Shown here piece after piece: positions 5,574 to 33,680 of a stretch of DNA of 33,680 bases. Location of the stretch: the IMG/VR virus record IMGVR_UViG_2526164670_000016, positions 1 to 33,680 of that record; one strand, given 5' to 3'. This DNA is from a virus (Duplodnaviria; Heunggongvirae; Uroviricota; Caudoviricetes). Numbering within the stretch: the first letter of the stretch is position 1; every line of letters starts with the position of its first letter. Made by a program: the position numbers and the translations under genes. The notes under the pieces are model-generated. The model was not told where the DNA came from. It searched no databases and was given only the letters and a program-made list of their open reading frames with translations.

Positions 5574-7496
5574 TTAATATCCCGTTGCCAGCCAGAACAA
5601 AGGAAAGCCCTGGTTTGCGTTAAGCCTTGCCGTCGTATTGGAATATTGCGACACCGAACATTCGAGCGTCCCGGCCACATTCGAGGTAAAAGGCGTGACC
5701 TGAATATTCCGGCACGCATTCGGGAATGCGATCGGGAACGTAATATTTTGATAACCGGACGTCTGGTTCGTGTAACCCCACTGACGGATCCTTCCTGTTG
5801 TTCCGTCGCGCTCCCAGCCGTTTTGCCCCAGGCTGGCCGTATTTTTCAGGTTATAGCGTGCGTCGCTCTCGGCTTTTGTATACGACCCAATCGACCCCGC
5901 CGAAATGGTGATGTTTGCTGTACCGTTAAATGCCACGCCGTTGATGGTGCGGGCGGTTTGCAATTGTGACGCTGAAACCGCATTACCATTTGACGCAAGA
6001 GCGCCAATCTCTGCCGGGGTGGGCTTGTTCGCCACATCATAGGCTTTTGTCCATGCAGACCAGGTGCCACCATAAAGCGTTCGGGCATAACTGCGGGAAT
6101 TGTTGTACACGCGATAAATTTGCGTGATTCCGGCATGCTTAAGGACTTCAAGAGAACCCGCGATCGCCTCCGGATAATTCGTCCCGGTTTGCGCCTGCGC
6201 GTTCGCGGGCTGGTAATAAAGCCCTGGCGTGGTGTAGTTGTTCAGATTTGCTGCATTACCAATCCCTTCGGCCAACCGAAAAATATCAGACGGGAAAAGA
6301 TCGATATTACTCGATAGCGCTCGACCGTTAACCGTTCGTGTTGAGGGCACGCGACTATTAGCATTATCGTTAGCCGCCTTAACTGCTTTCGGCGTCGCGG
6401 CGACGGCTTCCGACTCGCTGTCGGTGGCGCTGCTCAGTTGAATAATCCCTTTCTGCGCTGTCGTAGCGTCCTGCGCGGTGTATTTACCTTTCGCCAGGTC
6501 ATAGGTTGCCTTAACCGCTTTCGGCGTTGCCGCTACTTCTTCAGAATCGCTATCCGTGGCGCTGCTTAATTGCGTGAATCCCTTTGCGGTTGTGGTGGCG
6601 TCCGGGTGGTTGCGTGATTGTTCGTGTTTTTTCAGCGCATCACTGGCCTGTTGCTCGTTCAGCGTACCTTTTGGACGAAGATCGGTAATGACGCCGTTTG
6701 CGTCGATACTCGCAAGGGCAAACACGAAATGTTGCTCACCATTCTGCACGTAATCTTTAAGGTCGGCGGCAACCGTGATTTTGCTTTGTACCGCCCAAAT
6801 GCTCGTAAGCGTTCCCATCCACGCCACATCCAGCCAGACCTTAACCGGCTTTGTTGACACGGTAATATTCTGGTTTGCGGCCAACACTGAACGCAGACCG
6901 GCAAGGTATCCAGTACCTTTAGTGACAAAATACTGGGTGCCTGTTTTCGCGACCAGATAACCCGCATCAAAGAACGACGCCGCACCATACAGATCGATAT
7001 TTTCGCGGCGCTGGCGTTCATCCATTGCCGCCAGACGGGCAGTAAAATCAATCTGCCATGTCTCTGCCGGGGTGGTAATTTCCGTTGCTTCCCTGGCTCC
7101 GCTGTATTCCATCAGCATGGAACGGACCAGAACGTTTCCCTGCTGGCCGTTCGCATTTTTGATTTTACGCTGGGTCGGGGCATGAATAATCATCGCCAGT
7201 GTACCGGTGGCTTTATTTGCCAGACCGATCCAGTTGAAATCAAAATCACCCACATCTGCCCCCATCGTGACGGAATAAACGACAGAGTTTTCATTCACAA
7301 CACCGGATTTACTCACCACCTGACGATAAACAATTTTATCCGCTGCGGGTGCTGTCTCGGTATTATCAATCGGCTTATCAGCATCCAGCCCCGGAATATA
7401 CGCGAAAATAAATTCATCCAGCGCGACGGGCTGATTATTAATAGCCTGCTGGGCTTTCCACTCTGTAAATGCTTTTGTAATAACAGCCTGTGACAT
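5574..7496 (-). CDS. Tail fibre protein (P2 gpH-like), 640 aa
   Basis: Contains the duplicated motif HEQSRNHPDATTTAKGFTQLSSATDS...AATPKAVKA that I recall from P2 gpH; Gly/Asn/Thr-rich C-terminal receptor-binding region. Confidence 0.8.
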   Translation of the reverse strand: MSQAVITKAFTEWKAQQAINNQPVALDEFIFAYIPGLDADKPIDNTETAPAADKIVYRQVVSKSGVVNENSVVYSVTMGADVGDFDFNWIGLANKATGTLAMIIHAPTQRKIKNANGQQGNVLVRSMLMEYSGAREATEITTPAETWQIDFTARLAAMDERQRRENIDLYGAASFFDAGYLVAKTGTQYFVTKGTGYLAGLRSVLAANQNITVSTKPVKVWLDVAWMGTLTSIWAVQSKITVAADLKDYVQNGEQHFVFALASIDANGVITDLRPKGTLNEQQASDALKKHEQSRNHPDATTTAKGFTQLSSATDSDSEEVAATPKAVKATYDLAKGKYTAQDATTAQKGIIQLSSATDSESEAVAATPKAVKAANDNANSRVPSTRTVNGRALSSNIDLFPSDIFRLAEGIGNAANLNNYTTPGLYYQPANAQAQTGTNYPEAIAGSLEVLKHAGITQIYRVYNNSRSYARTLYGGTWSAWTKAYDVANKPTPAEIGALASNGNAVSASQLQTARTINGVAFNGTANITISAGSIGSYTKAESDARYNLKNTASLGQNGWERDGTTGRIRQWGYTNQTSGYQNITFPIAFPNACRNIQVTPFTSNVAGTLECSVSQYSNTTARLNANQGFPLFWLATGY

Positions 7497-7507
7497 AGGT
7501 TTTTCCT

Positions 7508-8107
7508 CTACTTCAAACTTGCGCTGTATGTTATTTGGGGCTGGTTATTCACATCGCCCAGGGTGGCAGGCCAGCAAATATATTCCCCCTGATACCAGCC
7601 AATATTGATATTCAGTGGCAGGGATGTGATCACTTCAAACTGGTAACGGCGGCATGTACGCCCATATTTACGGATGATTTCCAGCAGGAGATCGCCATTT
7701 TCCGCAATCTGGCTGTTTGTCACCCGAACAACAATCACGTCCCAGTCGAGTCCGTCCTGCCGCTCCAGCAATTCAACGTAACCAATCCCCAGTCGCTCAA
7801 AAATGGCAATAAAGCCCGCCACCTCTCCGGCCTGCTGCGCATTGATAAATGCGTAGCTCACCCGTTTGCGGAAGATGTCGAGCGGCTCCCCCTTAAACCG
7901 ATCGATATCGCGTTCCCAGGCAATCAGGTTTAACAGCGGTTCGGGGCAGACCAGCGGGTCAAACTGCTTTAACGGCCAGGAGATCCACCCGTACACCTGC
8001 GACCAGAACTTCACGCAGGCCCGCACCAGCCTGGCGGGGTCGCCTTTGTTCAGCCACGACGGCAATTTCAGACCGGCAAGCAACTTTGAAAACTCAGTCA
8101 TTCTCAA
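7508..8107 (-). CDS. Baseplate/tail protein (P2 gpI-like or Mu gp48/DUF2313-like), 199 aa
   Basis: Position between the J-like baseplate gene and the tail fibre gene; overlaps the J-like stop; size and position fit gpI/gp48-type proteins. Confidence 0.5.
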   Translation of the reverse strand: MRMTEFSKLLAGLKLPSWLNKGDPARLVRACVKFWSQVYGWISWPLKQFDPLVCPEPLLNLIAWERDIDRFKGEPLDIFRKRVSYAFINAQQAGEVAGFIAIFERLGIGYVELLERQDGLDWDVIVVRVTNSQIAENGDLLLEIIRKYGRTCRRYQFEVITSLPLNINIGWYQGEYICWPATLGDVNNQPQITYSASLK

Positions 8108-19642: not shown

Positions 19643-21454
19643 ATGGCTAAATATTCCGATGAATTAAAAGAAGCGGCCCGCACGCTTTATATAAAAAGCT
19701 GGACGCCGAAAGATATTGCGCAGGAACTGAATATTCCACCGCGTACAATTTACCACTGGGCTGACGTCGGGAAGTGGGCATCACTGCAGCCTGTTGAATC
19801 GGTGGAAAATGTCATCGCCCGCCGTATCGACCAGCTCTCCCGCCGCGAGAAAAAAACAGCGCTGGAACTGGAAGAACTGCGCGATCTAATTGCTCACCAT
19901 GTGAAACTCATGGCGCAGCGCAACAAGCACGCCGAAAAGCTGGCAGAAATTCAGGCCCAGAAAACGGCTTATGATGGTGAAGGGTACTGCCTCAGCAGCG
20001 CAGGCGGGGAACCAGGGGAAAGAAAGCGCCGGTATAAGAAAAACGACGTTTCCGGTATTACAGCGGAAATGCTCGACACCTGGGCGCAGGAACATCTCTT
20101 CGAGTACCAGCTGCACTGCCGCGAACATAAAGGCGAAGACTGGCGCTTCATTCTGAAAAGCCGCCAGGTGGGTATGACCTATTATTTCGCCTGGGAAGCA
20201 TTCGAAGACGCCGTCATTACCGGTGACAACCAGGTCTTTTTCTCTGCAAGCCGATCCCAGTCGGAAATCTTCCGCGAATACATCGTCCAGATCGCCCAGA
20301 ACCATTTCGGCGTGACGCTGACGGGTAAAAATATCCGCCTCAGTAACGGCGCAATACTGCGCTTTTTGTCCACGAACGCCAGCACCGCGCAGGGCTTTAA
20401 CGGCCACCTGTATGGCGATGAGGTTTTCTGGATCCCGAAATTCACGCGCCTGCATGAAGTTGCCAGCGCAATGGCAACGCATAACAAATACCGCACGACC
20501 TACTTTTCGACGCCCAGCGCGAAAACGCACCAGGCTTACCCGGTCTGGACTGGCGAAGCCTGGCGCGGGGACGACCCGAAACGCAAAGGTGTGAAGTTCC
20601 CGAACGAAAGCGAAATGTGCCAGGGCATTCTTTGCCCGGACCAGATCTGGCGCTACATCATCACGATGGAAGACGCTATCGAAGGCGGCCTCGGGGCGCT
20701 TGTCGATATTGAACGGCTGCGCAACAAATACAGCCCGACCGCGTTCGCCATGCTCTACATGTGCCAGTTTGTTGACAGTAAGGACGCGGTTTTCAAGTTC
20801 TCCGCGCTTGTCGGCTGTGAAGTGGACCGGGCCACATGGGGCGACTTTGATCTGACCGCTACGCGGCCTTTCGGCAATCGCGAAGTATGGGCAGGTTTTG
20901 ACCCGTCGCGCTCCGGCGACAACTCAACATTTGTGTTAATCGCGCCCCCTATAGAGGACGGCGAGCGCTTCCGCGTGCTGGCCGTCTGGCAATGGCAGGG
21001 TTTTAACTTCAGCTGGCAGGCCGACCAGATAAAGCAGCTTATGCGCCGCTTTAACATCACTTACATCGGGATCGATACAACCGGCATAGGTAAAGGCGTT
21101 TATGACCTTGTCAGCAAATTTGCGCCACGCGAAGCCACACCAATTCTTTACAGCGTCGAAAGCAAAAACCGCCTGGTGATGAAGATGATCGACGTTGTCG
21201 AGCGTAAGCGCATCGAATGGGCAAAAGACGCCGTAGACGAAACGAACAAGGAGCGCGTCGAAATTCCGGCCAGCTTTATGGCTATCCGGCGCACGACAAC
21301 CAACAGCGGCAATGCGCTGACGTTTGTTGCCGAACGTTCAGACGCGACCGGCCATGCAGATGTTTTCTTCGCTATCTCGCACGCCGTAATTAACGAACCT
21401 ATCGATCACGAATATGACCGCCCATCGGGCTGGTACTTTGGGAAAGCAGCATGA
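19643..21454 (+). CDS. P: Terminase ATPase (large) subunit (P2 gpP family), 603 aa
   Basis: Length and P2-like position, divergent from O and followed by the portal gene with an ATGA overlap. Confidence 0.85.
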   Translation: MAKYSDELKEAARTLYIKSWTPKDIAQELNIPPRTIYHWADVGKWASLQPVESVENVIARRIDQLSRREKKTALELEELRDLIAHHVKLMAQRNKHAEKLAEIQAQKTAYDGEGYCLSSAGGEPGERKRRYKKNDVSGITAEMLDTWAQEHLFEYQLHCREHKGEDWRFILKSRQVGMTYYFAWEAFEDAVITGDNQVFFSASRSQSEIFREYIVQIAQNHFGVTLTGKNIRLSNGAILRFLSTNASTAQGFNGHLYGDEVFWIPKFTRLHEVASAMATHNKYRTTYFSTPSAKTHQAYPVWTGEAWRGDDPKRKGVKFPNESEMCQGILCPDQIWRYIITMEDAIEGGLGALVDIERLRNKYSPTAFAMLYMCQFVDSKDAVFKFSALVGCEVDRATWGDFDLTATRPFGNREVWAGFDPSRSGDNSTFVLIAPPIEDGERFRVLAVWQWQGFNFSWQADQIKQLMRRFNITYIGIDTTGIGKGVYDLVSKFAPREATPILYSVESKNRLVMKMIDVVERKRIEWAKDAVDETNKERVEIPASFMAIRRTTTNSGNALTFVAERSDATGHADVFFAISHAVINEPIDHEYDRPSGWYFGKAA

Positions 21455-22512
21455 CAAAGAAACAGCGTAAAAATAAAAAATTCGGGTCCATGACCGGCAG
21501 CCGGGTTGAAACCTTCACGCCAGGGCGCGGAAGCGTGATCACATTTGGCGAACCAGAACCCATCCTGACGACCGGCACGGATTATCACAATATCTGGTAT
21601 GACAATGAGTATGACCACTGGCGACTTCCGATTGATCGCCTGGCGCTGGCCCAGTTGCCGAACCTTAACGGCCAGCATGGTGGTGTACTGTATGCGCGGC
21701 GCAATATGGTGGCCGGTGGCTACATCGGCGGCGGCCTGACGCCTGACCAGGTCGAACAGGCTGTCTTTGATTACCTGCTGTTTGGTGACGTTGCTATCCT
21801 GAAAATTCGTAACGTATTCGGGGAAGTGATCGACCTGCTGCCGCTGCCGTCGCTGTATCTTCGCTGCCGAAAAGACGGGTCGTTTGCTGTTTTGCAGGAA
21901 GGGCCAGCACTTATCTATGACCCGGAAGACATCGTCTTTTTTAAAATGTACGACCCGCGCCAGCAGGTGTATGGCCTGCCTGACTATATTGGCGGCATCC
22001 ATTCGGTGTTACTCAACAGTGAGGCAACCATCTTCCGACGCCGTTACTACAACAACGGGGCGCACATGGGCTTTATTCTCTATACCAGCGATCCGAATCT
22101 TACTCTGGAAATGGAAAACGAAATCAAAGAGAAGATCGCCCAGTCCAAAGGGCTGGGTAACTTCCGAAATATGTTTATCAACATCCCGAAGGGCGACCCG
22201 GAAGGGGTTAAAATCCTGCCGGTGGGCGAAGTCAGCGCAAAGGACGAATTTGCCAACATCAAAGGGATCACCGCACAGGATATCTTTACCGCTCACCGTT
22301 TCCCCGCTGGCCTGGCGGGTATCATCCCGACCAACGGCGCGGTAATGGGCAACCCTGAAACCGCCCGCACAACCTATCGCAAGGATGAAGTTATCCCCTT
22401 GCAGCGCAAGCTAATGAACGGCGTCAACAATGACCCGGAGATCCCCGCACACTTGCACCTGGTTTTTGACGTGGATATCCCGGCAATTACCACCGAAAAG
22501 GGCGAAAAATGA
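21451..22512 (+). CDS. Q: Portal protein (P2 gpQ family), 353 aa
   Basis: Size and position after the large terminase gene, with translational coupling. Confidence 0.85.
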   Translation: MTKKQRKNKKFGSMTGSRVETFTPGRGSVITFGEPEPILTTGTDYHNIWYDNEYDHWRLPIDRLALAQLPNLNGQHGGVLYARRNMVAGGYIGGGLTPDQVEQAVFDYLLFGDVAILKIRNVFGEVIDLLPLPSLYLRCRKDGSFAVLQEGPALIYDPEDIVFFKMYDPRQQVYGLPDYIGGIHSVLLNSEATIFRRRYYNNGAHMGFILYTSDPNLTLEMENEIKEKIAQSKGLGNFRNMFINIPKGDPEGVKILPVGEVSAKDEFANIKGITAQDIFTAHRFPAGLAGIIPTNGAVMGNPETARTTYRKDEVIPLQRKLMNGVNNDPEIPAHLHLVFDVDIPAITTEKGEK

Positions 22513-22568
22513 ACGCAGTTAAGTTAAAATCATCCCCACTGTTAGCAATGGCGTGCGGGATGGTGAAC

Positions 22569-22835
22569 ATGCGAGTTTTTAAAATTAAATGTCCTGAATG
22601 CGGCTCACCGGCCATCATTCGTAAATCTGACTGGAAAGACAAAAAACTGGCTGATTTATACTGCGCCTGCACGGAAGTTGAATGCGGCCACACCTTTGTT
22701 TTTAACGCCCAGTTTTCACATACCCTCAGCCCCAGCGGGCTGACCGGCAACAAGCTGGTTAAATTCCTGATTGACCGACTCAAGCCGGAAGAACGGCAAT
22801 TCGCGCTGGACCTGCTCAACGGCCAGACGGCATAA
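22569..22835 (+). CDS. ogr: Ogr/Delta-family zinc-finger late-gene transcriptional activator, 88 aa
   Basis: MRVFKIKCPECGSPAIIRK...YCACTEVECGH gives a C-x2-C-x22-C-x4-C motif as in P2 Ogr; ATG at 22569 with GGGATGG upstream (track ORF starts earlier at 22509). Confidence 0.75.
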   Translation: MRVFKIKCPECGSPAIIRKSDWKDKKLADLYCACTEVECGHTFVFNAQFSHTLSPSGLTGNKLVKFLIDRLKPEERQFALDLLNGQTA

Positions 22836-22837
22836 AC

Positions 22838-22869
22838 GAAGCCCGCATAAAGCGGGCTTCTTTTCATTT
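22838..22869 (+). terminator. Rho-independent terminator after ogr
   Basis: GAAGCCCGC-ATAAA-GCGGGCTTC hairpin followed by TTTTCATTT, starting 3 nt after the ogr stop. Confidence 0.65.
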
Positions 22870-22943
22870 AGAGTGATGTAATGTTATCCGCTATTTTGTT
22901 ACATTCATGGTGGATTTTGCCCTAATATCTGAGGAAAGAAGAT

Positions 22944-24299
22944 ATGCGAATGACCGCTCCAACCAAATCCTTTACTGATGGATTTTGTGAGAATGATGAT
23001 ATTTTTGAAAGAAAAAAACTCCACGATATCATTATGCGGGTTGCCACTAACGCCCCTGATAAAAGTTTAGTTTTAGCATTAGATGATAAATGGGGTAATG
23101 GGAAAACTTCATTTGTAAAAATGATGGAGTCAGAGATAAACAAAAACCACTCCGACGATTTCGAAGTCATCTATTTTGATGCTTTTAAAAGTGATTATCA
23201 GTCTGATCCATTTGTGGCATTAACTTCTAGCATATATTCTCTTATAAACAAAAGTGATGGAAAGTTAAAAACGCTATGTAAGGAACTGTTAGACATTGGA
23301 AAAAAACTTGGTGCCTCATTTGCTATAAATGGTGCGAAGTTTGCAATCAGTACACTTTCAGGTGGGTTACTATCTGGAACCGTTTTTGATAAGGCTACAG
23401 ACACAATAACTGACTCTATCTCTTCGCCCGTAGAGGAATATATAGAAAGCAAAATAAAAAATAGTGAAAGTGAAATCGCGATTATTGAGCGGTTTGGTGA
23501 TTTATTAACTAAAATTTGTGAACAAAGTGGTAAGAAAATATTTTTTATAATCGATGAGCTTGATCGTGCCCGCCCTGACTTTTCATTAGACTTATTAGAG
23601 AAAATAAAACATATATTTTCGGTTAAAGGTGTTATTTTCCTGTTGGTTGTTAATCGTGAACAATTTGAAAAAAGCATTGAATGTCGATATGGCAATATTA
23701 ACGCAAGGCTGTACCTTAATAAATTTGTCCATTACTGGTTTAGTCTTCCGAAGAGAAGCTATCTTTCTGAGGATTGTTTAAATAGATTTAAGCACTCCAC
23801 TATAAAACAATACCTTCTCACTATAGATAATGGTAATAATTTCTTCGTTCGCAATGGCTCCCTTGTAAATACGCTGGCGTATTTGTTAGAAGTCAATGGT
23901 TGTTCACTACGAGAGGCTGAGCGTTGTTACTCTGTGTTTGCAGTTATTGCAAATCCGAATAAAATAAACGAGTACAGTACCGATGCTTATAAAGTTGCAA
24001 TGGGACTAGTTGCATTTCTGAAAGTTCATAACCCTCAAATTCTATCTGATATCATATATAAGCGATATGAATTAAAAGAAATTCTACCAAAGCTATCAAT
24101 CAAAAGAGAACATTTAGAATATATCTCGGAGGTCTACTTACTTGATCACTTACTACAGTACCACTACAAATCAGATGAAGAATTAAAAAACCCTGAGAAC
24201 CAAAATCAATTTTCTGACTTACAAGGTTATTTTGGTCGAAGAGCCCCTGTTTTAGAAATGATGTTTGAAACAGTTGAAGGGTTTAATATTAGTTATTAA
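22944..24299 (+). CDS. KAP-family P-loop NTPase (PifA-like), 451 aa; candidate phage-exclusion protein
   Basis: Walker A WGNGKTS (aa 50-56) and Walker B IFFIIDELDRARPD (about aa 200) in the KAP style, with a hydrophobic insert between them (ASFAINGAKFAISTLSGGLLSGTVF); low-GC gene with its own RBS (GAGGAAAG) in the cargo island. Confidence 0.6.
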   Translation: MRMTAPTKSFTDGFCENDDIFERKKLHDIIMRVATNAPDKSLVLALDDKWGNGKTSFVKMMESEINKNHSDDFEVIYFDAFKSDYQSDPFVALTSSIYSLINKSDGKLKTLCKELLDIGKKLGASFAINGAKFAISTLSGGLLSGTVFDKATDTITDSISSPVEEYIESKIKNSESEIAIIERFGDLLTKICEQSGKKIFFIIDELDRARPDFSLDLLEKIKHIFSVKGVIFLLVVNREQFEKSIECRYGNINARLYLNKFVHYWFSLPKRSYLSEDCLNRFKHSTIKQYLLTIDNGNNFFVRNGSLVNTLAYLLEVNGCSLREAERCYSVFAVIANPNKINEYSTDAYKVAMGLVAFLKVHNPQILSDIIYKRYELKEILPKLSIKREHLEYISEVYLLDHLLQYHYKSDEELKNPENQNQFSDLQGYFGRRAPVLEMMFETVEGFNISY

Positions 24300-24346
24300 A
24301 CCGTAAAAACATTATTTGCAGGCTCTTTGCCGCCCGCACCCGCAGA

Positions 24347-24389
24347 ATCCTGCAGGCCGACGCAAACAGTTGCGACGTCCTGCAGGATT
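24347..24389. repeat. GC-rich inverted repeat (AATCCTGCAGG ... CCTGCAGGATT with a partly palindromic 22-nt centre)
   Basis: Perfect 11-bp arms at 24347-24357 and 24379-24389 between the convergent KAP gene and the 24394-25104 ORF. Confidence 0.5.
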
Positions 24390-24393
24390 GCAT

Positions 24394-25050
24394 TCATTCT
24401 TTTGGGGGGCGACCTTCTGCACCCGCCAGCATTTTTTGATACTCCCCGACCGGATCAAACCGCAGACGCGTGGCATCTATGCCGTGGTTTTCCCGCAGAC
24501 GTTCCCATAATTTATTCACCATCCGTGACTCGTCGGGTAATTGACGCGTTATCAACTGGCCGCCAGCACTGGCCCGATAAACTTTTCCGCCAATCTCCAG
24601 ACGGCTCCCCATTAACAGCGAAACGGCCTGAATCTCTGAAATCTCAACCGAACACAACACCGCATCTGCCAGCAGACTGGCAACCGCAGGGGCAAGCGCT
24701 GCCTGCCTAGCTTTTTCAGCCTCCGATCTGGCCTCGGTTTTTTCAACGGCAGAACGCCAGGCGACATCTAATTCGCTTCCTGGCTCATAAGGTGATCCGC
24801 TTTGCCGCCTTTTGAATGGTGTTTCACGTAGTCGCCGCATCAATTTGCGCCGCGTTGGCTGGTCCATATCTTCAAAATCGACGATTTCATCGTCTGAATC
24901 TTCTGTCGTTAACTCTCCGTCAGCTGGCACAGCCATTTCTGACATTGAAAAATCGGTGATTTTTTCGTCTTCCGTAGAGTTATTGACAGAACTCGAACTC
25001 AAACACTCTGTACATTTTTGTGCAGTATAAAAAGTCTTCATGTTGATCAT
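24394..25050 (-). CDS. Hypothetical protein, acidic N-terminal region; start uncertain (ATG at 25050 or 25041; track ORF starts at a GTG at 25104)
   Basis: Single open frame across a GC-rich segment that contrasts with the AT-rich flanking cargo genes; no strong RBS; no family recognised. Confidence 0.3.
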   Translation of the reverse strand: MINMKTFYTAQKCTECLSSSSVNNSTEDEKITDFSMSEMAVPADGELTTEDSDDEIVDFEDMDQPTRRKLMRRLRETPFKRRQSGSPYEPGSELDVAWRSAVEKTEARSEAEKARQAALAPAVASLLADAVLCSVEISEIQAVSLLMGSRLEIGGKVYRASAGGQLITRQLPDESRMVNKLWERLRENHGIDATRLRFDPVGEYQKMLAGAEGRPPKE

Positions 25051-25118
25051 CAGTGCATAGACTTTTATGATTAGTTCAAAATGGCATTGTGCAGTATGCT
25101 CCACAACGGGTGAGACTT

Positions 25119-25682
25119 ATGAACATTCAAACCGAGACAATTTTTAGCATTGGGCATGGTGCTCGCAGGCTAGAAGAATTTATAGCTTTGTTGAAAAAAT
25201 ATCATATCAGATATGTTATAGACGTTCGTTCAAAACCCAGATCTAGGTTTCACCCACATTTTAATCGTGAAGCTTTGACTCTTCATTTGAAAGAAGCAGG
25301 CATTCGATACGTATTCATGGGAGAACAATTAGGTGGTATTCCTAAAGATGATCAATGTTACGATGAAGACGGACGGGTTGATTACGAAAAAATAAAAAAC
25401 AAAGCTTTTTTCCATGAGGGAATTGAGAGAATAAAAACGGCTCATTCAAAAAATTTAAAAATTGCATGTATGTGTAGCGAGCTATCCCCTTGCGATTGCC
25501 ATAGAAGTAAATTAATTGGTGATTACTTGCAATCACTCGGGATAGAAATGCAGCATATAGATAAGAAAGGAGATATTAGTTCACAAAATGACGTAATGAA
25601 GGAAGTGCTCGGCTCAAACGGTGAATTGGACCTATTTTCGGACAACACCAAAAAATTAAAATCAAGAAAATCGTATCGTTGA
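25119..25682 (+). CDS. DUF488-like protein, 187 aa
   Basis: N-terminal IFSIGHGARRLEEFIALLKK...VIDVRSKPRSRFHPHFNRE and later CMCSE..PCDCHR match what I recall as the DUF488 signature; ATG at 25119 with GGTGAG upstream (track ORF starts at a GTG at 25089); low GC. Confidence 0.55.
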   Translation: MNIQTETIFSIGHGARRLEEFIALLKKYHIRYVIDVRSKPRSRFHPHFNREALTLHLKEAGIRYVFMGEQLGGIPKDDQCYDEDGRVDYEKIKNKAFFHEGIERIKTAHSKNLKIACMCSELSPCDCHRSKLIGDYLQSLGIEMQHIDKKGDISSQNDVMKEVLGSNGELDLFSDNTKKLKSRKSYR

Positions 25683-25697
25683 ATAAAGGGTATTGAG

Positions 25698-26309
25698 ATG
25701 AATACTGATGTAATAATTCTTTCCAGAACAAAAATGTCTGGAGATAAAATTTGCGTAGGTGGATTAGATCTTAATAGTGGGAAGATGTTAAGATTATTGG
25801 ATAATAGAGCAAGTGCTTTGACTTCAGCTTATCCATATAGTATTGGCGAAACATACTCAATAGAGTTTGCTGAAAGGTATCAAGTAGCAGCCCCACATGT
25901 TGAAGATGTAGCTGTTTATGACTACAGCTTAGCGAAAAGTTTTAATAAAGTAGATCTAGATACTATCGTCCATAAACACTCTGGTACATATAACAATCTT
26001 AGTGAACTCTTCTCTGGAAAACTTCACTGGCAAAACTCCAAGGGATATGCTTTGGAGTCAGACCCTCCGGAATTTAGCGTTCAAATAGCAAAAATTAATA
26101 AAATCCTAGTTAGAAATGGAACTGACTTTCAAGAGTTCGGCTCACTCAATCCGCGCAAAGTTAAATATGTTGGCGAACTTGATATAAATAGACTCCCTAG
26201 TAGAATAAATCCTGGCACACCTATTAGATTTTCTTTAGCTCGACCTTGGGATAAGGATAATAATGGTATTAAAGTGTGTTATTTACAACTATCTGGAGTT
26301 TACATTTAA
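25698..26309 (+). CDS. Hypothetical protein, 203 aa, co-operonic partner of the DUF488-like gene
   Basis: ATG 15 bp after the DUF488 stop with AAAGGG..GAG upstream; AT-rich; no family recognised. Confidence 0.5.
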   Translation: MNTDVIILSRTKMSGDKICVGGLDLNSGKMLRLLDNRASALTSAYPYSIGETYSIEFAERYQVAAPHVEDVAVYDYSLAKSFNKVDLDTIVHKHSGTYNNLSELFSGKLHWQNSKGYALESDPPEFSVQIAKINKILVRNGTDFQEFGSLNPRKVKYVGELDINRLPSRINPGTPIRFSLARPWDKDNNGIKVCYLQLSGVYI

Positions 26310-26428
26310 AAATTATTTAATATTAGAATAACGCGCTCAGCATTAACTTATTTTATAAAATGCAGAGCGCCTTATGAAATATAACTATTCAAACCTTTCG
26401 TTGAATCAATATCATTTATATTCGAAAA

Positions 26429-28927
26429 TTACTCTATCGCCTTTCTCCAGCGACTGAGCAACTCATCAACTCTATGCCTTGCCAGCGTTTTACGCCAGTT
26501 CATATCCGCACCGGTCACAATCAACTCCCCTGTAATTTGGTTGGCACGGTAAGTAGTATCAAGCGCAGTCACTTCTCTCCCTTGTACCAGCTTTAGCACT
26601 TGCACAGGTGTGATTTGGATCTTTCTTAACTTCGCCCAATCCAGTACCTGAGCAACTAGGGCTGTAACGTTCTTATCTACTACGCTTTCTTCCTGGCGGA
26701 GCGCATACGCGGCTTTTAAATAGCTTTCCGCTCTAGCTCGGTTATATTCGGTGCACTCACCCACAGTGATACTGTACGCAAGTGACTCAAACTCATCTGC
26801 TGCTGAAACACGCTGCGTTTGTTTGTGGATTTTCAGGCCTTCAGCAATCTCTTTTTTCTGTTCCCACCTTAATTTGCCGATTTCAAATTGCTCTGGAGAT
26901 TCATCCCTAGTCGGCAAAGTCAGATCTGGCCGATAAACAACCTGGCAATCTGTTTGTTTTTTGTACTCAGTACAGTTATTGACACGAGTCCTAGAGGGCG
27001 CAGACGCGCCCTTAAGGTCAACAGCAAGGTCAACGGCCTTGCCTGAATCGTTAATAATCTCCGGTTTCTTACGCACAATCCGATAAGAATGTAGGCGGGT
27101 TTCAACTGGCGGCATGAAGATGTGAGGCATCACCAGTCCTTTAATTAAGGTCTGGTATTCACCGTGATCGTTTGGCTGGTCTTTTTGTTGATACCAGATG
27201 CGCAGTGGCAGATCACAACGGGCAACCAACGCCCCACCCTGCAATTGGGTGTATTGCTGCCAGTCGCCAGCATCCGCTGCACGGTGCAGCTCGGCAAACA
27301 ACGGGTTAATCTGGTCTGCCTTTTCCTGATTGCGGAATCGACGTAGCTCGCGCCAGACTGAAACAGGCGCACCACCAAGGAACTGGAATTGACGAATACC
27401 CCAGCATGATGCCCAGGCCGTCGCATGTTTTGAGGTTTCTTTTAATGGTCTGCCGTTCTCGTCATCTGTTTCACCGTCGAGCGCGTAACCATCAATATTC
27501 TTGCTGATATACTTCACCACATAACCGGTGGCGCTTCCGATTTCATGATCGATAGGCTTCATTTCGAAACGTGGACGAATGCCATGCTTACCCTGCAATT
27601 CGTCCTCATCCTCGCGGGTGGCGTAGTCCTTCATCACTTCCAACAATTCAGCTGAATGTTCTGGTAAGGAAAACAGAAGACCATGCCAGTGTGGCGTTCC
27701 GTCGTGGTGAGATTCAGCCACGCGAAGCCCAAACACCTGAATATCGCGGCGGGCCAACTCAGCGCGGATCTGTTGCCAGACTCGATTAAGATAACGTTGC
27801 GTGGTTCTTGGACTGGCCCCGTTCCATTTGCCATTACGATGACCGAAGACGGTATAGGCATGATATTTGGAAGGTGCTGTCATGGTGAAAAACTGCCCTG
27901 CATAGCCACTTTCGGTAGCGACTTTCTCGAAGCCACCGATGCGAGTCATAAGCTCAACGCGGCGCAAAGCTGGGTTAGATATGCTCTTATCTATTTGCTC
28001 AATGAGTGAAATGCGTTCTTTGGTTTCCTGATCTTCCAGCTCAAGCCTGGCCATAATCGCCCGGCTGCGTTTCCGCCTAGTGTCCCACTCTTCAACATGA
28101 TGCTTACTGCAATATGGCGCAGCGCCTCGCTTCACATCACCAAAAGCGATGTGCAGATGTTCACGCCAGCGCGTGCCGTACTTTTTAAGATTTCGGTGCC
28201 AGTAGCGATCATCCAGCATCTTGCTGATACCGGTCGTCGCCTCATCAATAAACAATTTACCCCGGCAATACTTTTCCCAGTTCGGTGGCGTTAGAAAGAA
28301 AAGACGCGCAAGTTGTGCCGCCTCGGTGTAAAGGTATTCGGCATACCGGCGATCACTTTGCGTCTCTACCGTTTCGTGTACCTCGCTCAGCACCGACCGC
28401 ATATAGATCGCAATATCCTGCGCTAATAGTTCAACATCTTCCGGCGTGTAGTCCGGCAGCCTGTTGAATCTCTCAACTAAACCGTTAAGGGTATCAAATA
28501 CATGGTAAAGCGGGTTTAACTTTTTGAATGCTGTTTCAGCTTGTGATTTTGCGTCTTCGGTCATCGCAATTGCGTATTGAGCATTCACCATATTGATGGG
28601 CGGCAGCTCTCTGCGGATGATGTCTCTTACTGCCTGACGGGCAATATGTCGGCCCTTCATCGTGTGAATACTGTCAATGCGAGAAGCCAAGCGCAGGCGT
28701 ATAAAGCGAGGAAGTCTCGAAAGGGTAAGTTTCACCCACGACAAAAACTCTTGTTCTTGACCCAATTCGAATAGATCAACAACAGGAGTCTTATCAACAT
28801 AAATAGCTGCATTAGGCTTTTGCCACTCGTAATCGTAATTGATATCAGCAGCAGAATTAGACATACCCCTGCCGCCAACTAACTGGCGGCGATTGTTACT
28901 CGGCCGAACAAACGCGGAGTCTGTCAC
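26429..28927 (-). CDS. A: Replication initiation endonuclease (P2 gpA-like rolling-circle initiator), 832 aa from the GTG at 28927
   Basis: HUH motif (DGTPHWHGLLF) and catalytic tyrosine motif (GYVVKYISKNIDGYALDG) as I recall from P2 gpA; GTGA overlap with the Dam stop, alternative ATG at 28864. Confidence 0.85.
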   Translation of the reverse strand: MTDSAFVRPSNNRRQLVGGRGMSNSAADINYDYEWQKPNAAIYVDKTPVVDLFELGQEQEFLSWVKLTLSRLPRFIRLRLASRIDSIHTMKGRHIARQAVRDIIRRELPPINMVNAQYAIAMTEDAKSQAETAFKKLNPLYHVFDTLNGLVERFNRLPDYTPEDVELLAQDIAIYMRSVLSEVHETVETQSDRRYAEYLYTEAAQLARLFFLTPPNWEKYCRGKLFIDEATTGISKMLDDRYWHRNLKKYGTRWREHLHIAFGDVKRGAAPYCSKHHVEEWDTRRKRSRAIMARLELEDQETKERISLIEQIDKSISNPALRRVELMTRIGGFEKVATESGYAGQFFTMTAPSKYHAYTVFGHRNGKWNGASPRTTQRYLNRVWQQIRAELARRDIQVFGLRVAESHHDGTPHWHGLLFSLPEHSAELLEVMKDYATREDEDELQGKHGIRPRFEMKPIDHEIGSATGYVVKYISKNIDGYALDGETDDENGRPLKETSKHATAWASCWGIRQFQFLGGAPVSVWRELRRFRNQEKADQINPLFAELHRAADAGDWQQYTQLQGGALVARCDLPLRIWYQQKDQPNDHGEYQTLIKGLVMPHIFMPPVETRLHSYRIVRKKPEIINDSGKAVDLAVDLKGASAPSRTRVNNCTEYKKQTDCQVVYRPDLTLPTRDESPEQFEIGKLRWEQKKEIAEGLKIHKQTQRVSAADEFESLAYSITVGECTEYNRARAESYLKAAYALRQEESVVDKNVTALVAQVLDWAKLRKIQITPVQVLKLVQGREVTALDTTYRANQITGELIVTGADMNWRKTLARHRVDELLSRWRKAIE

Positions 28928-29910
28928 CGCTCAGACTCCACGCCACATGTCGCAGCCGTTGCCAGCATTTCGTTATAGGTCGCGTTACCCATTACAGGGC
29001 CACAATCAGGGCAACCACCACCACCGGCACGACCACAGCCGCTACACAATTTGAGGACGCCGATCACTTCACTGGCGGCCCCTCGGGTAATGGCGTTCGC
29101 GCTAACAGAACGGTTAACGCTGATTTCCTGGAAGTTGAAACAGCGATAAATCTCGCGGGTGACTGGGGTGTCGCTATTGGACAGGATCACCGGCGAACCA
29201 GTAAGGCGGTTAATATCCAGCAGGACGGCAGCTAACTGGCGATGTTCTTTAATGCCAAACGGGGCTGTGTGATATTGGGTGAAATTAGCTGTTTCGCTTG
29301 TTGGCAGGTATGGCGGATCGCAGTAGATAACCGCGTCACTACCAATCATGATTTTTAACGTGCTCTGGAAATCGCAGCACACGAAAATGGCTTTCGTGTC
29401 GTTAGCTTTTTCAGAGAATAAACGGATCTGTTCTTCCGGGAAGTAAGGCGGGGTTTTGTGACGCCCAAAGGGAACGTTATATCCACCCTGTTGGTTGTAG
29501 CGTACTACGCCGTTATATCCGTGACGGTTCAGGTAAAGAAATTGTGCTGCACGAAGAATCTTGCCCGCGTCCGGCCCATCTTCAAACACACTGCGCAATG
29601 ACAGTAGGTCACGTGCGCGGGCGTTGAAATCATCGCGGATCCATTTATAGCCGTCTTTATCGCCGTACACTTTAAACAGTGGGCGAGCAGCGTCGATCAC
29701 CGCATCAGGCCAGCGGGTTATCTGGCGATACAGGTTAATTAAATCTGGGTTGATATCACCCAGGATATAACGGCGATATTCAGTATTGAGGAAAACAGAA
29801 GCACCGCCGACAAACGGTTCCACCAGGCAATCGGCTTTCGGCAGAATCGGCAGCAAATCAGGCATAACGCGGCCTTTACCACCGGGCCATTTAACGAGAG
29901 ATCGAATCAT
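28924..29910 (-). CDS. DNA adenine methyltransferase, Dam-like, with a Cys-rich C-terminal extension, 328 aa
   Basis: WPGGKGRV...EPFVGGASVF (SAM-binding) and IYCDPPY (catalytic DPPY) closely resemble E. coli Dam from memory; extra tail CSGCGRAGGGGCPDCGP; GGAG RBS before the ATG at 29910. Confidence 0.85.
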   Translation of the reverse strand: MIRSLVKWPGGKGRVMPDLLPILPKADCLVEPFVGGASVFLNTEYRRYILGDINPDLINLYRQITRWPDAVIDAARPLFKVYGDKDGYKWIRDDFNARARDLLSLRSVFEDGPDAGKILRAAQFLYLNRHGYNGVVRYNQQGGYNVPFGRHKTPPYFPEEQIRLFSEKANDTKAIFVCCDFQSTLKIMIGSDAVIYCDPPYLPTSETANFTQYHTAPFGIKEHRQLAAVLLDINRLTGSPVILSNSDTPVTREIYRCFNFQEISVNRSVSANAITRGAASEVIGVLKLCSGCGRAGGGGCPDCGPVMGNATYNEMLATAATCGVESER

Positions 29911-30385: not shown

Positions 30386-30679
30386 CTACGCAAAGATGCC
30401 CATTAAGCGGGAAAACCAGCGGCGCTTATTACGCGGGCGCGACATGAACGGTACACGGTAGTTTTTAACAAATTGAACATCTAACGCTTTCGGCTGGAAG
30501 AACCTCCCGTCCGGGGTTTCAATCCAGCCACGTTGATGCTGACGGTGGGTGATCTGCTGGCCGTGGGTGAGCAGGCTGGCGAGTGAAGGGCACTGTGTTA
30601 AGTCCATGATGATCTCCGTCATATTGAAAAGATGCCGGGATATAACCCCACGCCCGGCACGTGTTTCCTGTGATAACAT
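30386..30679 (-). CDS. Hypothetical early-operon protein, 72-97 aa depending on start
   Basis: ORF with an internal ATG (MDLTQ...) preceded by GGAG; basic C-terminus; no family recognised. Confidence 0.3.
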   Translation of the reverse strand: MLSQETRAGRGVISRHLFNMTEIIMDLTQCPSLASLLTHGQQITHRQHQRGWIETPDGRFFQPKALDVQFVKNYRVPFMSRPRNKRRWFSRLMGIFA

Positions 30680-30745
30680 CGCTATGCCTGTGAAACTTTG
30701 GAGAGTGAATCAGGCATAACAATCACCAACACAGAAGGAGTTGTA

Positions 30746-31225
30746 ATGAAATTCAATGTATTTTTTAAAAAAGACCACGGATCACACTGGGTGCTTTCCG
30801 ATGGTGCCCCCCTCTTTGAAAGTCCACTATTTGAAACAAGACCTAAAGCCATTGATGACCTTGAGAACTTTGTAGGCCTTATGGAATCGCCAATCTTTAT
30901 TAAGGCTGGTGACGATATTAATTCTGGCGATACAGAAAACTGTCCATCTGTAGTTATTTCTTTAAAACAGCATGAATCGCTATGGGGCTGGGAATTATTT
31001 ATCTCAAAAAATGGACAACTGTCTAAAGTTACCGAAAGTTCAGGAAATGGCTTTGACTCATTAGAATTAGCAAAGCAAAATGCCCAGTTTTTCCTTAATG
31101 CCATTATCGACGCTCCTATTCTGGATCAAGCCGATGTCGCTATCCCCAGCATGCACTTCTCAAAATCTTTCGAGGAAACGCACCACATTGGTGACACTCA
31201 CCCATCTAGTAAATGGTTCAAATAA
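30746..31225 (+). CDS. YegP-like protein with two DUF1508-like repeats, 159 aa
   Basis: Strong RBS AAGGAG 6 nt before the ATG at 30746; two repeats (...HWVLSDGAPLFESPLFETRPKAIDDLENFV and ...WGWELFISKNGQLSKVTESSGNGFDSLELAKQNAQFF) resemble YegP from memory; low GC; opposite strand to the early operon. Confidence 0.5.
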   Translation: MKFNVFFKKDHGSHWVLSDGAPLFESPLFETRPKAIDDLENFVGLMESPIFIKAGDDINSGDTENCPSVVISLKQHESLWGWELFISKNGQLSKVTESSGNGFDSLELAKQNAQFFLNAIIDAPILDQADVAIPSMHFSKSFEETHHIGDTHPSSKWFK

Positions 31226-31229
31226 TCCA

Positions 31230-31586
31230 TCACTGTGGCGTTATCGTTTTTCTTGTGCGAGGTGGTACATCTCGCACGGTTTCTTCATCAACAATCAACT
31301 CATAAACTCTGATGCTGTTATCACCTTTTGATACGTCATCAAATACCTGAAAAAGAAAACTCATGAATTGCTCATAAGTGACGCTGGGTTCAACATACCC
31401 ACCTGTAACCTCAATTAATGGTGTTAGTCCTGAATTATCTGCTAACGAAACGCAGTCCAACTTATCCAAACGGAAAAAGTAATTACCGCAAGGTGTTCTT
31501 TTATCCTTAATCCGTATAAACACATTTGATAACGCTGTATGACTATCTGAGAGTTTAAAGATTTTTGCCGTGTCCATTTTATTCAA
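31230..31586 (-). CDS. Hypothetical protein, 118 aa, immediately downstream of cox
   Basis: AT-rich ORF in the position occupied by orf78 in P2; no family recognised. Confidence 0.35.
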   Translation of the reverse strand: MNKMDTAKIFKLSDSHTALSNVFIRIKDKRTPCGNYFFRLDKLDCVSLADNSGLTPLIEVTGGYVEPSVTYEQFMSFLFQVFDDVSKGDNSIRVYELIVDEETVRDVPPRTRKTITPQ

Positions 31587-31599
31587 CCCTGTAAGTTGC

Positions 31600-31875
31600 T
31601 TATGATGGATTGCCCAGACCCAACCACATTAACCACCCTTCCCTAATTTCCTTCGGGCGGCTCTCATACGCCATTTTCATGCCGTTGTTCCAGGCTGGAA
31701 GATAGACCCAGTACTCACCTGCCCGCCCGGAAGTTGATTGCGGATCGGTCATTTCAACTACAGGTAGCTTTCCTTTTTCAATCATCCCCTTCACCGCTGC
31801 CGGTGTTTTACCAATGAGTTTTGCGAACTCCTGATATGGGACGGCATCTGTGCTTAACGCGATCTGTTTAACCAT
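31600..31875 (-). CDS. cox: Cox (P2-type excisionase and transcriptional regulator), 91 aa
   Basis: Near-identical by memory to P2 Cox (...DAVPYQEFAKLIGK...GKLPVVEMTDPQSTSGRAGEYWVYLPAWNNG...AYESRPKEIREGWLMWLGLG); divergent from C. Confidence 0.85.
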   Translation of the reverse strand: MVKQIALSTDAVPYQEFAKLIGKTPAAVKGMIEKGKLPVVEMTDPQSTSGRAGEYWVYLPAWNNGMKMAYESRPKEIREGWLMWLGLGNPS

Positions 31876-31937
31876 TTAAGGCCCTCACAAGTTTAAGAAT
31901 CGTCACCAATGGCTTATAGTTGCTTTTGATGTTCATT

Positions 31938-31991
31938 TCTAAACATCAAACAGTCTACATCTAAATCAAATAGTATTGAGATCTAAACACC
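31938..31991. promoter_or_regulatory. Immunity switch region: three direct repeats of TCTAAA(C/T) spaced exactly 22 bp (starts 31938, 31960, 31982); candidate C-repressor operators overlapping the Pe/Pc promoters
   Basis: Direct repeats with two-helical-turn spacing in the cox-C intergenic region; P2 C is known to bind paired direct repeats flanking the early promoter -10. Confidence 0.45.
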
Positions 31992-32291
31992 ATGTCAAAC
32001 GCCTTAAACGAGAAAATTGTACTCATCAGAAAGTCTGAGTATCTCAGCAGACAGCAACTTGCTGATTTAACAGGCATTCCCTATGGCACTTTAAGTTATT
32101 ACGAAAGTGGTCGTTCTACACCGCCCACGGACGTAATGATGAGGATTTTGCAAATGCCCCAGTTCAGCAAATACACGTTGTGGTTTATGACCGATCAGGT
32201 TGCTCCCGAAGCCGGTCAGATAGCACCGGCCCTCGCACACTTTGGGCAAGATGTAACAACATCGCAGCACTCAGACCAAAAGATTGGTTAA
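31992..32291 (+). CDS. C: Immunity repressor C (P2-type), 99 aa
   Basis: Near-identical by memory to P2 C (MSN...EKIVL.RKSEYLSRQQLADLTG.PYGTLSYYESGRSTPPTDVMM); 99 aa as in P2; followed by int. Confidence 0.85.
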   Translation: MSNALNEKIVLIRKSEYLSRQQLADLTGIPYGTLSYYESGRSTPPTDVMMRILQMPQFSKYTLWFMTDQVAPEAGQIAPALAHFGQDVTTSQHSDQKIG

Positions 32292-32436
32292 CCATTCACC
32301 AGGCGCATCTTTATTACAAAATTTGTTTACTTGTTGCCAAATACAACAAGCACAACAAGTTTGTGAAATCTAAGCGCAAGGGAAAATTAACAGCAGCAAA
32401 GAAAACTCAACCTAGCACCATTCATTTGGGGGTCTT

Positions 32437-33221
32437 ATGACAATTAAGAAACTCGATGATGGTCGTTATGAAGTGGATATCAGACCTGCAGGGCGCAACG
32501 GAAAGCGCATCCGCAGGAAATTTGACAAGAAAAGTGAGGCTGTAGCTTTTGAGAAACACACTCAATACAACCATCACGATAAAGAATGGCTAGCTAAACC
32601 GACAGATAAGCGGCATCTGTCTGAATTAACAAAAGTCTGGTGGGATCTGAAAGGCAAGCATGAAGAACACGGAAAATCCAATTTGGGTAAGATTGAAATC
32701 TTTACCCGGATCACTGATGACCCTTGCGCGTTCCAGATAACCAAAGCGCTTATTAGCCAGTACAGCATGACTCGCAGAGGGCAAGGCATAAAACCGGCCA
32801 GTATTAACCGCGACCTTACCTGCCTGAGTGGTATGTTTACTGCGCTAATTGATGCGGAACTGTTTTTTGGCGAACACCCTTTCAGAGGGATGAAAAAGCT
32901 CAAGGAGCAGAAACCAGAAACAGGCTATCTGACGCAGGAAGAAATAACATTGTTACTTGCCAATCTTGACGGGGACAACAAGAAAATCGCGATCCTCTGT
33001 TTAAGTACCGGCGCTCGATGGGGTGAAGCCGCGAAACTGAAAGCTGAGAACGTAATACAGAATCGGGTGACGTTCGTTAAAACAAAGACGAACAAACCGC
33101 GCACAGTCCCTATCTCTGAGGAAGTTGCTGTAATGATTGCGGGTAAAGGTTATCTGTTCCCTGATGCCTCATATCCGAAGTTCAGGCGAACAATGAAAGA
33201 TGTAAAACCAGATCTACCGAG
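32437..33221 (+). pseudogene. int: Tyrosine integrase (P2 Int-like), 3'-truncated by IS insertion; about 261 of an expected ~337 aa retained
   Basis: N-terminal 260 aa strongly resemble P2 Int from memory up to ...KDVKPDLPS; after about 33221 the frame reads unrelated sequence (LYIDLCNCLILICS...) into the IS; the C-terminal catalytic region is absent. Confidence 0.8.
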
Positions 33222-33680
33222 CCTGTACATAGATTTGTGTAATTGCCTGATTTTGATATGTTCAATCCAGCATCAAATGAAGGTTAATTTATGGACGAAA
33301 AACAGTTACAGGCTCTGGCTAACGAACTGGCCAAAAACCTCAAAACCCCTGAAGACCTCAGTCAGTTTGATCGGCTGCTGAAAAAACTCAGCGTTGAAGC
33401 CGCTCTCAATGCTGAGATGACACACCATCTTGGGTATGAGAAAAATCAGTCCAGACCAGGAGCTAACTCCCGCAACGGTTATTCCACAAAGACCGTTATC
33501 ACAGGCGACGGTCCACTGGAACTGCGTACTCCGCGCGATCGTGACGGTACCTTCGAACCGCAACTGGTAAAGAAAAATCAGACCCGTATTACCGGGATGG
33601 ATAACCAGATCCTGTCGTTGTATGCCAAAGGGATGACCACCCGTGAGATAGCTACTGCGTTCAAAGAACTGTATGACGCA
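33221..33680 (+). mobile_element. IS256-family insertion sequence (IS1414/IS285-like), left end and 5' part; continues beyond the window
   Basis: Transposase ORF begins at 33291, about 70 bp inside the inferred left end; the boundary is placed where the integrase homology stops (plus or minus 10 bp). Confidence 0.7.
33291..33680 (+). CDS. IS256-family transposase, N-terminal 130 aa (partial, runs off the window)
   Basis: MDEKQLQALANELAKNLKTPEDLSQFDRLLKKL...NSRNGYSTKTVITGDGPLELRTPRDRDGTFEPQLVKKNQTRITGMDNQILSLYAKGMTTREI is the typical IS256/Mutator-like transposase N-terminus; no stop before the window end. Confidence 0.8.
   Translation, partial: MDEKQLQALANELAKNLKTPEDLSQFDRLLKKLSVEAALNAEMTHHLGYEKNQSRPGANSRNGYSTKTVITGDGPLELRTPRDRDGTFEPQLVKKNQTRITGMDNQILSLYAKGMTTREIATAFKELYDA

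Follow-up and report, generated by a model that had tools for sequence, protein, structure and literature searches.

The 33,680-nucleotide stretch of DNA analysed here (the window; positions 1 to 33,680 of IMG/VR virus record IMGVR_UViG_2526164670_000016) is a whole integrated P2-like (Peduoviridae) Escherichia coli prophage. Between its portal gene and its replication gene gpA lies a 1.36-kb open reading frame (ORF) for a KAP-family P-loop NTPase, which on balance is best read as a cargo gene that forms a candidate anti-phage system on its own, its product being a soluble KAP/AAA+-like ATPase (PDC-S20 type) that works through a phage-sensing ATP switch. The KAP gene is a member of the group catalogued as PDC-S20, system #92 and PHROG 8614, and is a credible candidate that is not new. 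As a discovery it adds nothing beyond the public catalogues; its value would be as a good minimal model for KAP NTPase immunity.

Family assignment and public catalogues

The ORF opens with an ATG located 8 nt downstream of a GAGGA ribosome-binding site (22932-22936) and encodes the 451 amino acids (aa) described in the first-pass annotation of this sequence; some public annotations place the start two codons later, at M3, giving a 449-aa product. That annotation had also assigned the protein to the KAP family, and a profile search confirmed the assignment, with Pfam KAP_NTPase (PF07693) matching residues 24-272 at E 2.6e-40 and 139 bits, against a cut-off of 20. Homologues numbered 358 at E ≤ 1e-5. 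The overall ratio of nonsynonymous to synonymous substitution rates (dN/dS) against homologues was 0.06-0.14, and the gene is therefore maintained by selection. The ORF is a real, intact gene under purifying selection.

GenBank contains the exact protein under accession EFW73398.1, with the title 'KAP P-loop domain protein [Escherichia coli EC4100B]'. When the gene was compared by megablast with 5,426 complete E. coli genomes, no match was obtained, although the exact protein occurs in draft E. coli assemblies. A survey of P2 hotspots lists it as the single-gene system #92 'KAP_NTPase', with 36 E. coli occurrences (Table S5B; Rousset et al. 2022, PMC9122126), the sequence of which is essentially identical to the window protein, with one K/N difference in the portion compared. 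All four PADLOC-DB profiles of PDC-S20 (446-464 positions) match the protein, the best at E 6.7e-70 and 235 bits over residues 18-416, against profile positions 18-405 of 464, with matches judged by E-value and aligned span rather than by PADLOC's own score and coverage thresholds. The gene thus resembles PDC-S20 both in a profile match over most of the protein and in being a single gene without a conserved partner. The PDC systems in PADLOC are 145 defence candidates obtained by guilt-by-embedding, and genes lying inside BREX, DISARM or type I restriction-modification (RM) loci were the basis of the PDC-S20 models. PDC-S20 was not mentioned in the literature searched, nor was KAP in the main texts of DefensePredictor and iLund4u. 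PHROG 8614, which has no assigned function, matches the protein over its full length (residues 1-451, E 3e-155). At E ≤ 1e-30, a profile search retrieved 3,589 sequences, each representing a cluster at 50% identity. Nearly all of the best-scoring 150 relatives are 425-470 aa long and match over approximately the whole of that length; fusions and extensions are absent among them.

A stand-alone cassette in the portal-gpA interval

The KAP gene has a GC content of 34.5%, compared with ~55% for the phage backbone, and forms an AT-rich cassette. Among sequenced phages, the nearest are SI7, SW3 and SW5 of Salmonella (Peduoviridae, Irrigatiovirus); SI7 carries no KAP gene, and other genes occupy its portal-gpA slot. 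The composition of the gene and its absence from SI7 bear out its earlier description as cargo. The portal-gpA interval is a hotspot that houses old and tin in P2, plus several validated defence systems (Rousset et al. 2022, PMC9122126), and the KAP gene lies within it, between the gpQ portal gene and gpA, where gene content varies among related phages.

Genomic context was compared for eight KAP homologues with 42-95% identity, from seven genera. In all eight cases a P2-like prophage carries the homologue between portal and gpA, in the same orientation as the portal gene, which flanks each locus. In Salmonella and Klebsiella the KAP gene is the only cargo of the slot, while it is accompanied by a 611-aa protein of unassigned function in Citrobacter, by a ClpX-type zinc-finger protein in Serratia, by a DUF3368 protein plus a helix-turn-helix (HTH)/M78 peptidase in Enterobacter, and by different proteins of unassigned function in Yersinia and Providencia. 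No conserved neighbour other than phage backbone was found among these loci. Because the neighbours differ, and because nothing else shares the slot in Salmonella or Klebsiella, the KAP gene is a stand-alone cassette, as had been proposed from the lack of an evident partner in the window. Relatives with ~29% identity occupy other mobile-element cargo positions, beside a P4-type primase gene in Salmonella houtenae and near an integrase gene in a Vibrio element.

Terminator-like hairpins are present on both sides of the KAP cassette (Table 1). The upstream hairpin would insulate the cassette from transcription arriving from that side. The downstream region, between the KAP stop codon and that of a gpA remnant, contains a hairpin at 24346-24389 with 20-nt arms, 90% complementary, and a 4-nt loop (inverted repeat I1), and a minus-strand terminator-like hairpin at 24317-24338. 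Promoter-like sites are not enriched in the KAP region (8 found, compared with 11 expected), and one such site at 23005-23032 was rejected as the KAP promoter because it lies inside the ORF.

Sequence motifs and predicted structure

Both Walker motifs that characterize the KAP family (PF07693) are present. The first-pass annotation had read the Walker A motif as GxWGxGKT; the P-loop and its catalytic lysine K54 are indeed there (D47-D48-K49-W50-G51-N52-G53-K54-T55), while the first glycine proved to be an aspartate, the motif reading D-K-W-G-N-G-K-T. This aspartate, D48, is invariant among 45 homologues, as are W50, G51, G53 and K54, giving DxWGxGKT in the enterobacterial clade; among wider relatives the position is occupied by D, A, G or S. 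The Walker B motif DELDR was read correctly and extends to IFFIIDELDR (residues 199-208), in which D204, E205, D207 and R208 are invariant in the 45 homologues.

The structure of the protein was modelled using AlphaFold2, with a mean predicted local distance difference test score (pLDDT) of 79.5 and a predicted template modelling score (pTM) of 0.76. The conserved core comprises residues 24-270, and contains Walker A, Walker B and N237, which is located at the end of strand 230-236 and appears to sit like a sensor-1 residue. A further conserved motif, SLREAERC, is found in the helical lid, within helix 322-333 (pLDDT >90). Residues S321, R323, E324 and C328 of this motif are invariant in the 45 homologues, and L322, E326 and R327 are at least 90% conserved; the motif may act as sensor 2 or as an arginine finger. 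The C-terminal domain consists entirely of helices, and no annotated match and no DNA-binding or winged-helix domain was identified in it (Pfam, AlphaFold2). The overall fold is nearest to the DNA- or protein-loading AAA+ switches ORC/Cdc6, TnsC, BrxC and RdrA, and the structural relatives of the KAP protein are nucleotide-dependent oligomerizing switches. A family-profile sequence search of solved structures gave nothing meaningful (best match E 0.95).

In 2004, Aravind and co-workers reportedly noted that many KAP members, not all, typically carry two or four transmembrane helices inserted between the Walker motifs. The hydrophobic insert noted in the first-pass annotation does exist, and is modelled as helices 107-139 and 160-195, with pLDDT <50 over residues 130-171; its hydrophobic part is one moderate segment below transmembrane grade. 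A two- or four-helix transmembrane hairpin was rejected, as hydropathy and the AlphaFold2 model show a single moderately hydrophobic segment, and no transmembrane helix was identified by Kyte-Doolittle hydropathy. Within the insert, residues 121-148 (nt 23304-23387) form a G/A/S/T-rich segment, a motif that is conserved across relatives together with a lysine. With a single sub-threshold segment and a low-confidence tip, this KAP NTPase is therefore soluble, or peripheral at most, and not a transmembrane protein.

Divergent alleles in a fixed slot

The C-terminal part of the protein evolves much faster than the core. Among homologues of at least 72% identity, 73-83% of sites vary in residues 361-451, compared with 17% in the core. 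For the same residues dN is 0.32-0.53, compared with 0.03-0.04 in the core (approximately tenfold). Alignment of the window with Salmonella prophage L005 revealed flanks that are 95-97% identical, whereas the KAP gene is 63-85% identical, lowest at its 3' end, with saturated dS; nucleotide identity in the region encoding residues 361-451 is 63-68%. The KAP allele of L005 is 77% identical to that of the window. Divergent KAP alleles are thus swapped within the same slot of near-identical phage backbones. Because the flanks are so similar while the gene is divergent with saturated dS, the alignment indicates that old KAP alleles have been exchanged at a fixed site, rather than the gene changing rapidly in place.

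Proposed function and alternative explanations

In the mechanism proposed for a single-gene anti-phage function, the KAP protein of the lysogen would rest as an inactive nucleotide-bound monomer. The C-terminal helical domain (361-451) would recognize some protein or structure that a superinfecting phage produces, and recognition would make the KAP protein assemble, in an ATP-dependent manner, into a ring or another oligomeric form, like its closest structural relatives RdrA and ORC/Cdc6; we infer that oligomerization is triggered through this variable domain. The oligomer would then block infection without a separate enzymatic effector. The likeliest output would be action at the inner membrane, a PifA-type energy collapse, through the G/A/S/T-rich segment, which occupies the site of the transmembrane helices in other KAP NTPases. 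This is the weakest step of the scheme, and a PifA-type membrane output through residues 121-148 is only faintly indicated. It is a long shot that the protein represents a complete yet minimal KAP immune module, a single soluble polypeptide combining sensor, ATP switch and effector, in which residues 121-148 would be a latent membrane-inserting element deployed after phage-triggered oligomerization. If true, this would provide a mechanistic model for PifA-type membrane exclusion, and would show how transmembrane-containing and transmembrane-less KAP NTPases are related.

Several observations weigh against a self-contained anti-phage function of this kind. The protein has no recognizable effector domain, and RdrA and QatA, NTPase relatives that act in defence, work together with partner enzymes. 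The promoter scan found no consensus sigma-70 promoter upstream of the gene, and expression in the lysogen is therefore a prediction. For the C-terminal domain, region-level dN/dS never exceeded 1 and dS was saturated for most pairs, on which grounds positive selection on the gene was rejected, and diversifying selection on the C-terminus is suggested at most. The membrane step is weak because the insert is below transmembrane grade (highest 19-aa Kyte-Doolittle mean 1.05, around residues 125-148, compared with a usual threshold of ~1.6), contains a conserved lysine in its segment, and is modelled there at low confidence; the insert reaches 1.6 in only 8 of 262 relatives. In the accessible part of Table S2, which lists the systems evaluated for defence by Rousset et al. 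(2022), neither 'KAP' nor the window-protein sequence appears. A phage-resistance experiment on the window protein or PDC-S20 was likewise not found in the literature; to that extent the earlier label 'uncharacterised' stands, while the listings in GenBank, system #92, PDC-S20 and PHROG 8614 go beyond it.

The alternative that fares best, though unlikely, is defence by a direct, non-abortive block, in which the ATP-bound oligomer would sequester or remodel a phage protein or nucleoprotein required for replication or packaging, and the cell would survive. Tin of P2, which poisons T-even gp32, provides a comparison and shares this hotspot in P2. The fold, nearest to the loading switches ORC/Cdc6, TnsC, BrxC and RdrA, and the architecture, without an effector domain or transmembrane helix, are both consistent with such a block, while the all-helical C-terminal domain, without annotated match and without a DNA-binding or winged-helix domain, argues against it. 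EF_KAP, the one stand-alone KAP defence protein for which the influence of multiplicity was reported, gave equal protection at multiplicities of infection of 1 and 10 and was judged not abortive (bioRxiv 10.1101/2025.10.07.681051). This favours a direct block, although EF_KAP, with its N-terminal transmembrane helices and 322-aa extra region, is a distant analogy; it also leaves abortive infection, which the first-pass annotation had put forward, as a guess.

It is improbable that the gene is a non-defence moron, serving in P4-type satellite interference, in control of the phage's own replication or packaging near the packaging site, or as a lysogen fitness trait. The hotspot does house non-defence genes such as partition systems and toxins, and five of eight additional P2-hotspot systems tested gave no protection (Rousset et al. 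2022, PMC9122126); moreover, the family is strikingly confined to one slot, always co-oriented with the portal gene. Against this stand the ~29%-identity relatives in other mobile-element cargo sites, the derivation of the PDC-S20 models from genes within defence loci, and SI7, the lack of a KAP gene in which means that the gene is dispensable for the phage. Quite improbable, finally, is a purely regulatory or sensor NTPase that depends on a partner from another locus, be it a host factor or a second defence system, and is not truly stand-alone, for while its nearest relatives of known biology act in multi-gene systems (QatA by profile, with QatBCD; RdrA by fold, with RdrB), Tmn synergizes with GajA and the protein has no effector domain of its own, there is no conserved neighbour in the eight loci, the gene is the sole hotspot cargo in two genera, phage-borne cassettes have to function in any host entered, and the best 150 relatives are of nearly uniform length.

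KAP NTPases were proposed to be anti-phage proteins twenty years ago, and to our knowledge no mechanism is known for any of them, PifA and Tmn included. The PDC-S20 family offers a convenient minimal case, being 451 aa, soluble, partner-free and abundant, and its natural allele series share a single defined slot of the prophage. Should a phage assay prove positive, PDC-S20 would move from candidate to validated system and become a tractable model.

Table 1 Coordinates of the KAP gene, its sequence elements and other features of the window.
Feature	Position	Strand	Details
Host peptidase-U32 gene	1-1362		One end of the window
Terminase gene	19643-21454		
Portal gene (gpQ-like)	21451-22512	+	Left border of hotspot; Pfam Phage_portal, E 3.5e-13
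Ogr/Delta-type zinc-finger regulator gene	22509-22835	+	Pfam Ogr_Delta, E 2.6e-17
Terminator-like hairpin with T-run after Ogr/Delta gene	22834-22864	+	9-bp stem with 7 GC pairs, then TTTTCATTT; inverted repeat I5
Untranslated region upstream of KAP gene	22865-22943	+	Holds the GAGGA site
KAP-family P-loop NTPase gene	22944-24299	+	451 aa, ATG start
Walker A / P-loop (DDKWGNGKTS)	23082-23111	+	Residues 47-56; catalytic lysine K54
Insert between Walker motifs	23241-23528	+	Residues ~100-195; modelled as long helical hairpin with disordered tip
Walker B (IFFIIDELDR)	23538-23567	+	Residues 199-208
SLREAERC motif in helical lid	23904-23927	+	Residues 321-328; conserved
C-terminal helical domain, fast-evolving	24024-24296	+	Residues 361-451; proposed specificity/sensor region
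Convergent terminator region	24317-24389	.	Between KAP stop and gpA-remnant stop
3' remnant of older gpA gene	24394-25104	-	236-aa ORF; 91% identical to L002 gpA residues 680-872
gpA replication gene, functional	26429-28927	-	Right border of hotspot; Pfam Phage_GPA, E 1.8e-101
Phage integrase gene	32437-33381		Opposite end of the window

Neighbouring genes and other regions of the prophage

The P2-type structural genes, terminase, portal and gpA genes all lie between the peptidase-U32 gene and the integrase gene. The window spans the whole prophage, and given the position of these two genes at its ends, both integration junctions should therefore lie within it. A search for the P2 cohesive-end sequence GGCGAGGCGGGGAAAGCAC, allowing up to 3 mismatches, gave no match, and this phage group thus uses a different packaging site.

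The Ogr/Delta gene directly follows the portal gene, with its ATG overlapping the portal stop codon. It is also present in SI7 and in Salmonella and Citrobacter prophages, and is phage backbone outside the KAP cassette; its start has been called variously, giving a 108-aa or a 91-aa product. In classical P2, ogr is located elsewhere. In Citrobacter prophage L008, the gene for the 611-aa protein (6111-7946) lies between the Ogr/Delta and KAP genes; the protein has no Pfam match, and is an unannotated candidate cargo.

Downstream of the KAP gene, the 236-aa ORF was considered as a KAP partner and rejected, being a recombination remnant of gpA. The window is colinear with the Salmonella prophages L002 (with an 878-aa gpA), L003 and L005 up to 24997. 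The following segment, 24998-28935, is a mosaic replacement through which the prophage gained DUF488, DuOB and another gpA while keeping the 3' end of the old gpA. The incoming gpA has 34% protein identity to L002 gpA, and its DNA is ~72% identical to that of an Enterobacter prophage gpA. In Table S5B of Rousset et al. (2022, PMC9122126), the 236-aa ORF appears as the first of three proteins that make up 'system #162 DUF488'; as a gpA remnant it is a doubtful component, and probably does not belong to that system.

The segment contains a second AT-rich cargo pair (~35% GC) at 25089-26309 (+). Its first gene encodes a DUF488 protein, matched by Pfam at E 3.9e-23 and by PADLOC PDC-M45B at E 1.4e-54; the second encodes a dual-OB protein ('DuOB'), which Pfam matches at E 7.7e-8 and for which PADLOC gave no match. 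Rousset et al. (2022, PMC9122126) counted the DUF488 pair 11 times in P2 hotspots of E. coli, and it is another candidate defence pair. These two genes were rejected as KAP partners because they form a separate cassette that none of the other KAP loci contains. Low GC (42-45%) also marks a third stretch, 30500-32500, which lies near the integrase/immunity end, contains small ORFs without a Pfam match at 30682-31104 (-) and 31230-31586 (-), and may be another cargo or variable region.

Comparison with known KAP-type systems

The nearest known defence protein in fold is RdrA of RADAR (PDB 8fnt, 8fnu, 8hr8), a ring-forming ATPase, the Streptococcus suis version of which was named 'KAP NTPase domain-containing protein' by its depositors. 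RdrA differs in its length of 785-850 aa, its extra domains and its dependence on the adenosine deaminase RdrB, and has ~15% sequence identity to the window protein. No RdrB-like gene was found near the KAP gene or in its eight homologue loci. RdrA membership was thus rejected, on the lack of both an adjacent RdrB and the ~800-900-aa architecture.

PifA of the F plasmid is likewise a single gene on a mobile element with a KAP-type NTPase domain. Here, the earlier description of the window protein as PifA-like holds for the NTPase domain, in which residues 33-271 match PifA profile positions 32-256 (E 4e-16), while the rest of the 720-position profile is unrelated to or absent from the window protein. 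PifA membership was rejected, as the similarity is confined to this domain. PifA reportedly excludes T7 in response to the phage proteins gp1.2 and gp10, with membrane permeability lesions.

Tmn (transmembrane NTPase; Gao et al. 2020) acts in defence as a single gene and has been described as a KAP NTPase; it synergizes with GajA and is boosted by Gabija. Its NTPase domain differs in carrying two inserted transmembrane helices, which are lacking in the window protein. The Tmn family was not returned in a PADLOC scan of the KAP protein at E ≤ 10; PADLOC contains a tmn model. With neither a Tmn profile match nor transmembrane helices, Tmn membership was rejected.

QatA of QatABCD is, like the window protein, a soluble KAP-like NTPase, and there is weak similarity between them (PADLOC QatA, E 9e-13; NCBIfam NF041923, E 3e-12). 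However, the window protein scores 45.9 bits against a curated cut-off of 600, and the QatA profiles are ~590-650 positions long. No QatB, QatC or QatD gene lies near the KAP gene, the neighbours of which are the Ogr/Delta gene and the gpA remnant. QatA membership was rejected, as both the NCBIfam equivalog score and the QatBCD neighbours failed.

EF_KAP and other KAP-effector fusions are stand-alone proteins with experimentally demonstrated, Walker-B-dependent anti-phage activity, the resistance having been observed in Enterococcus (bioRxiv 10.1101/2025.10.07.681051). EF_KAP and its kin are found in Firmicutes and have N-terminal transmembrane helices and/or a C-terminal 'effector region' of ~320 aa (322 aa in EF_KAP), whereas the window protein consists of a bare NTPase plus a ~180-aa helical domain and is found in enterobacterial P2-like prophages. 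Compared with the PDC-S20, #92 and PHROG 8614 group, the KAP gene shows no substantive difference, sharing its family, its size, its single-gene organization and its location in the P2 hotspot.

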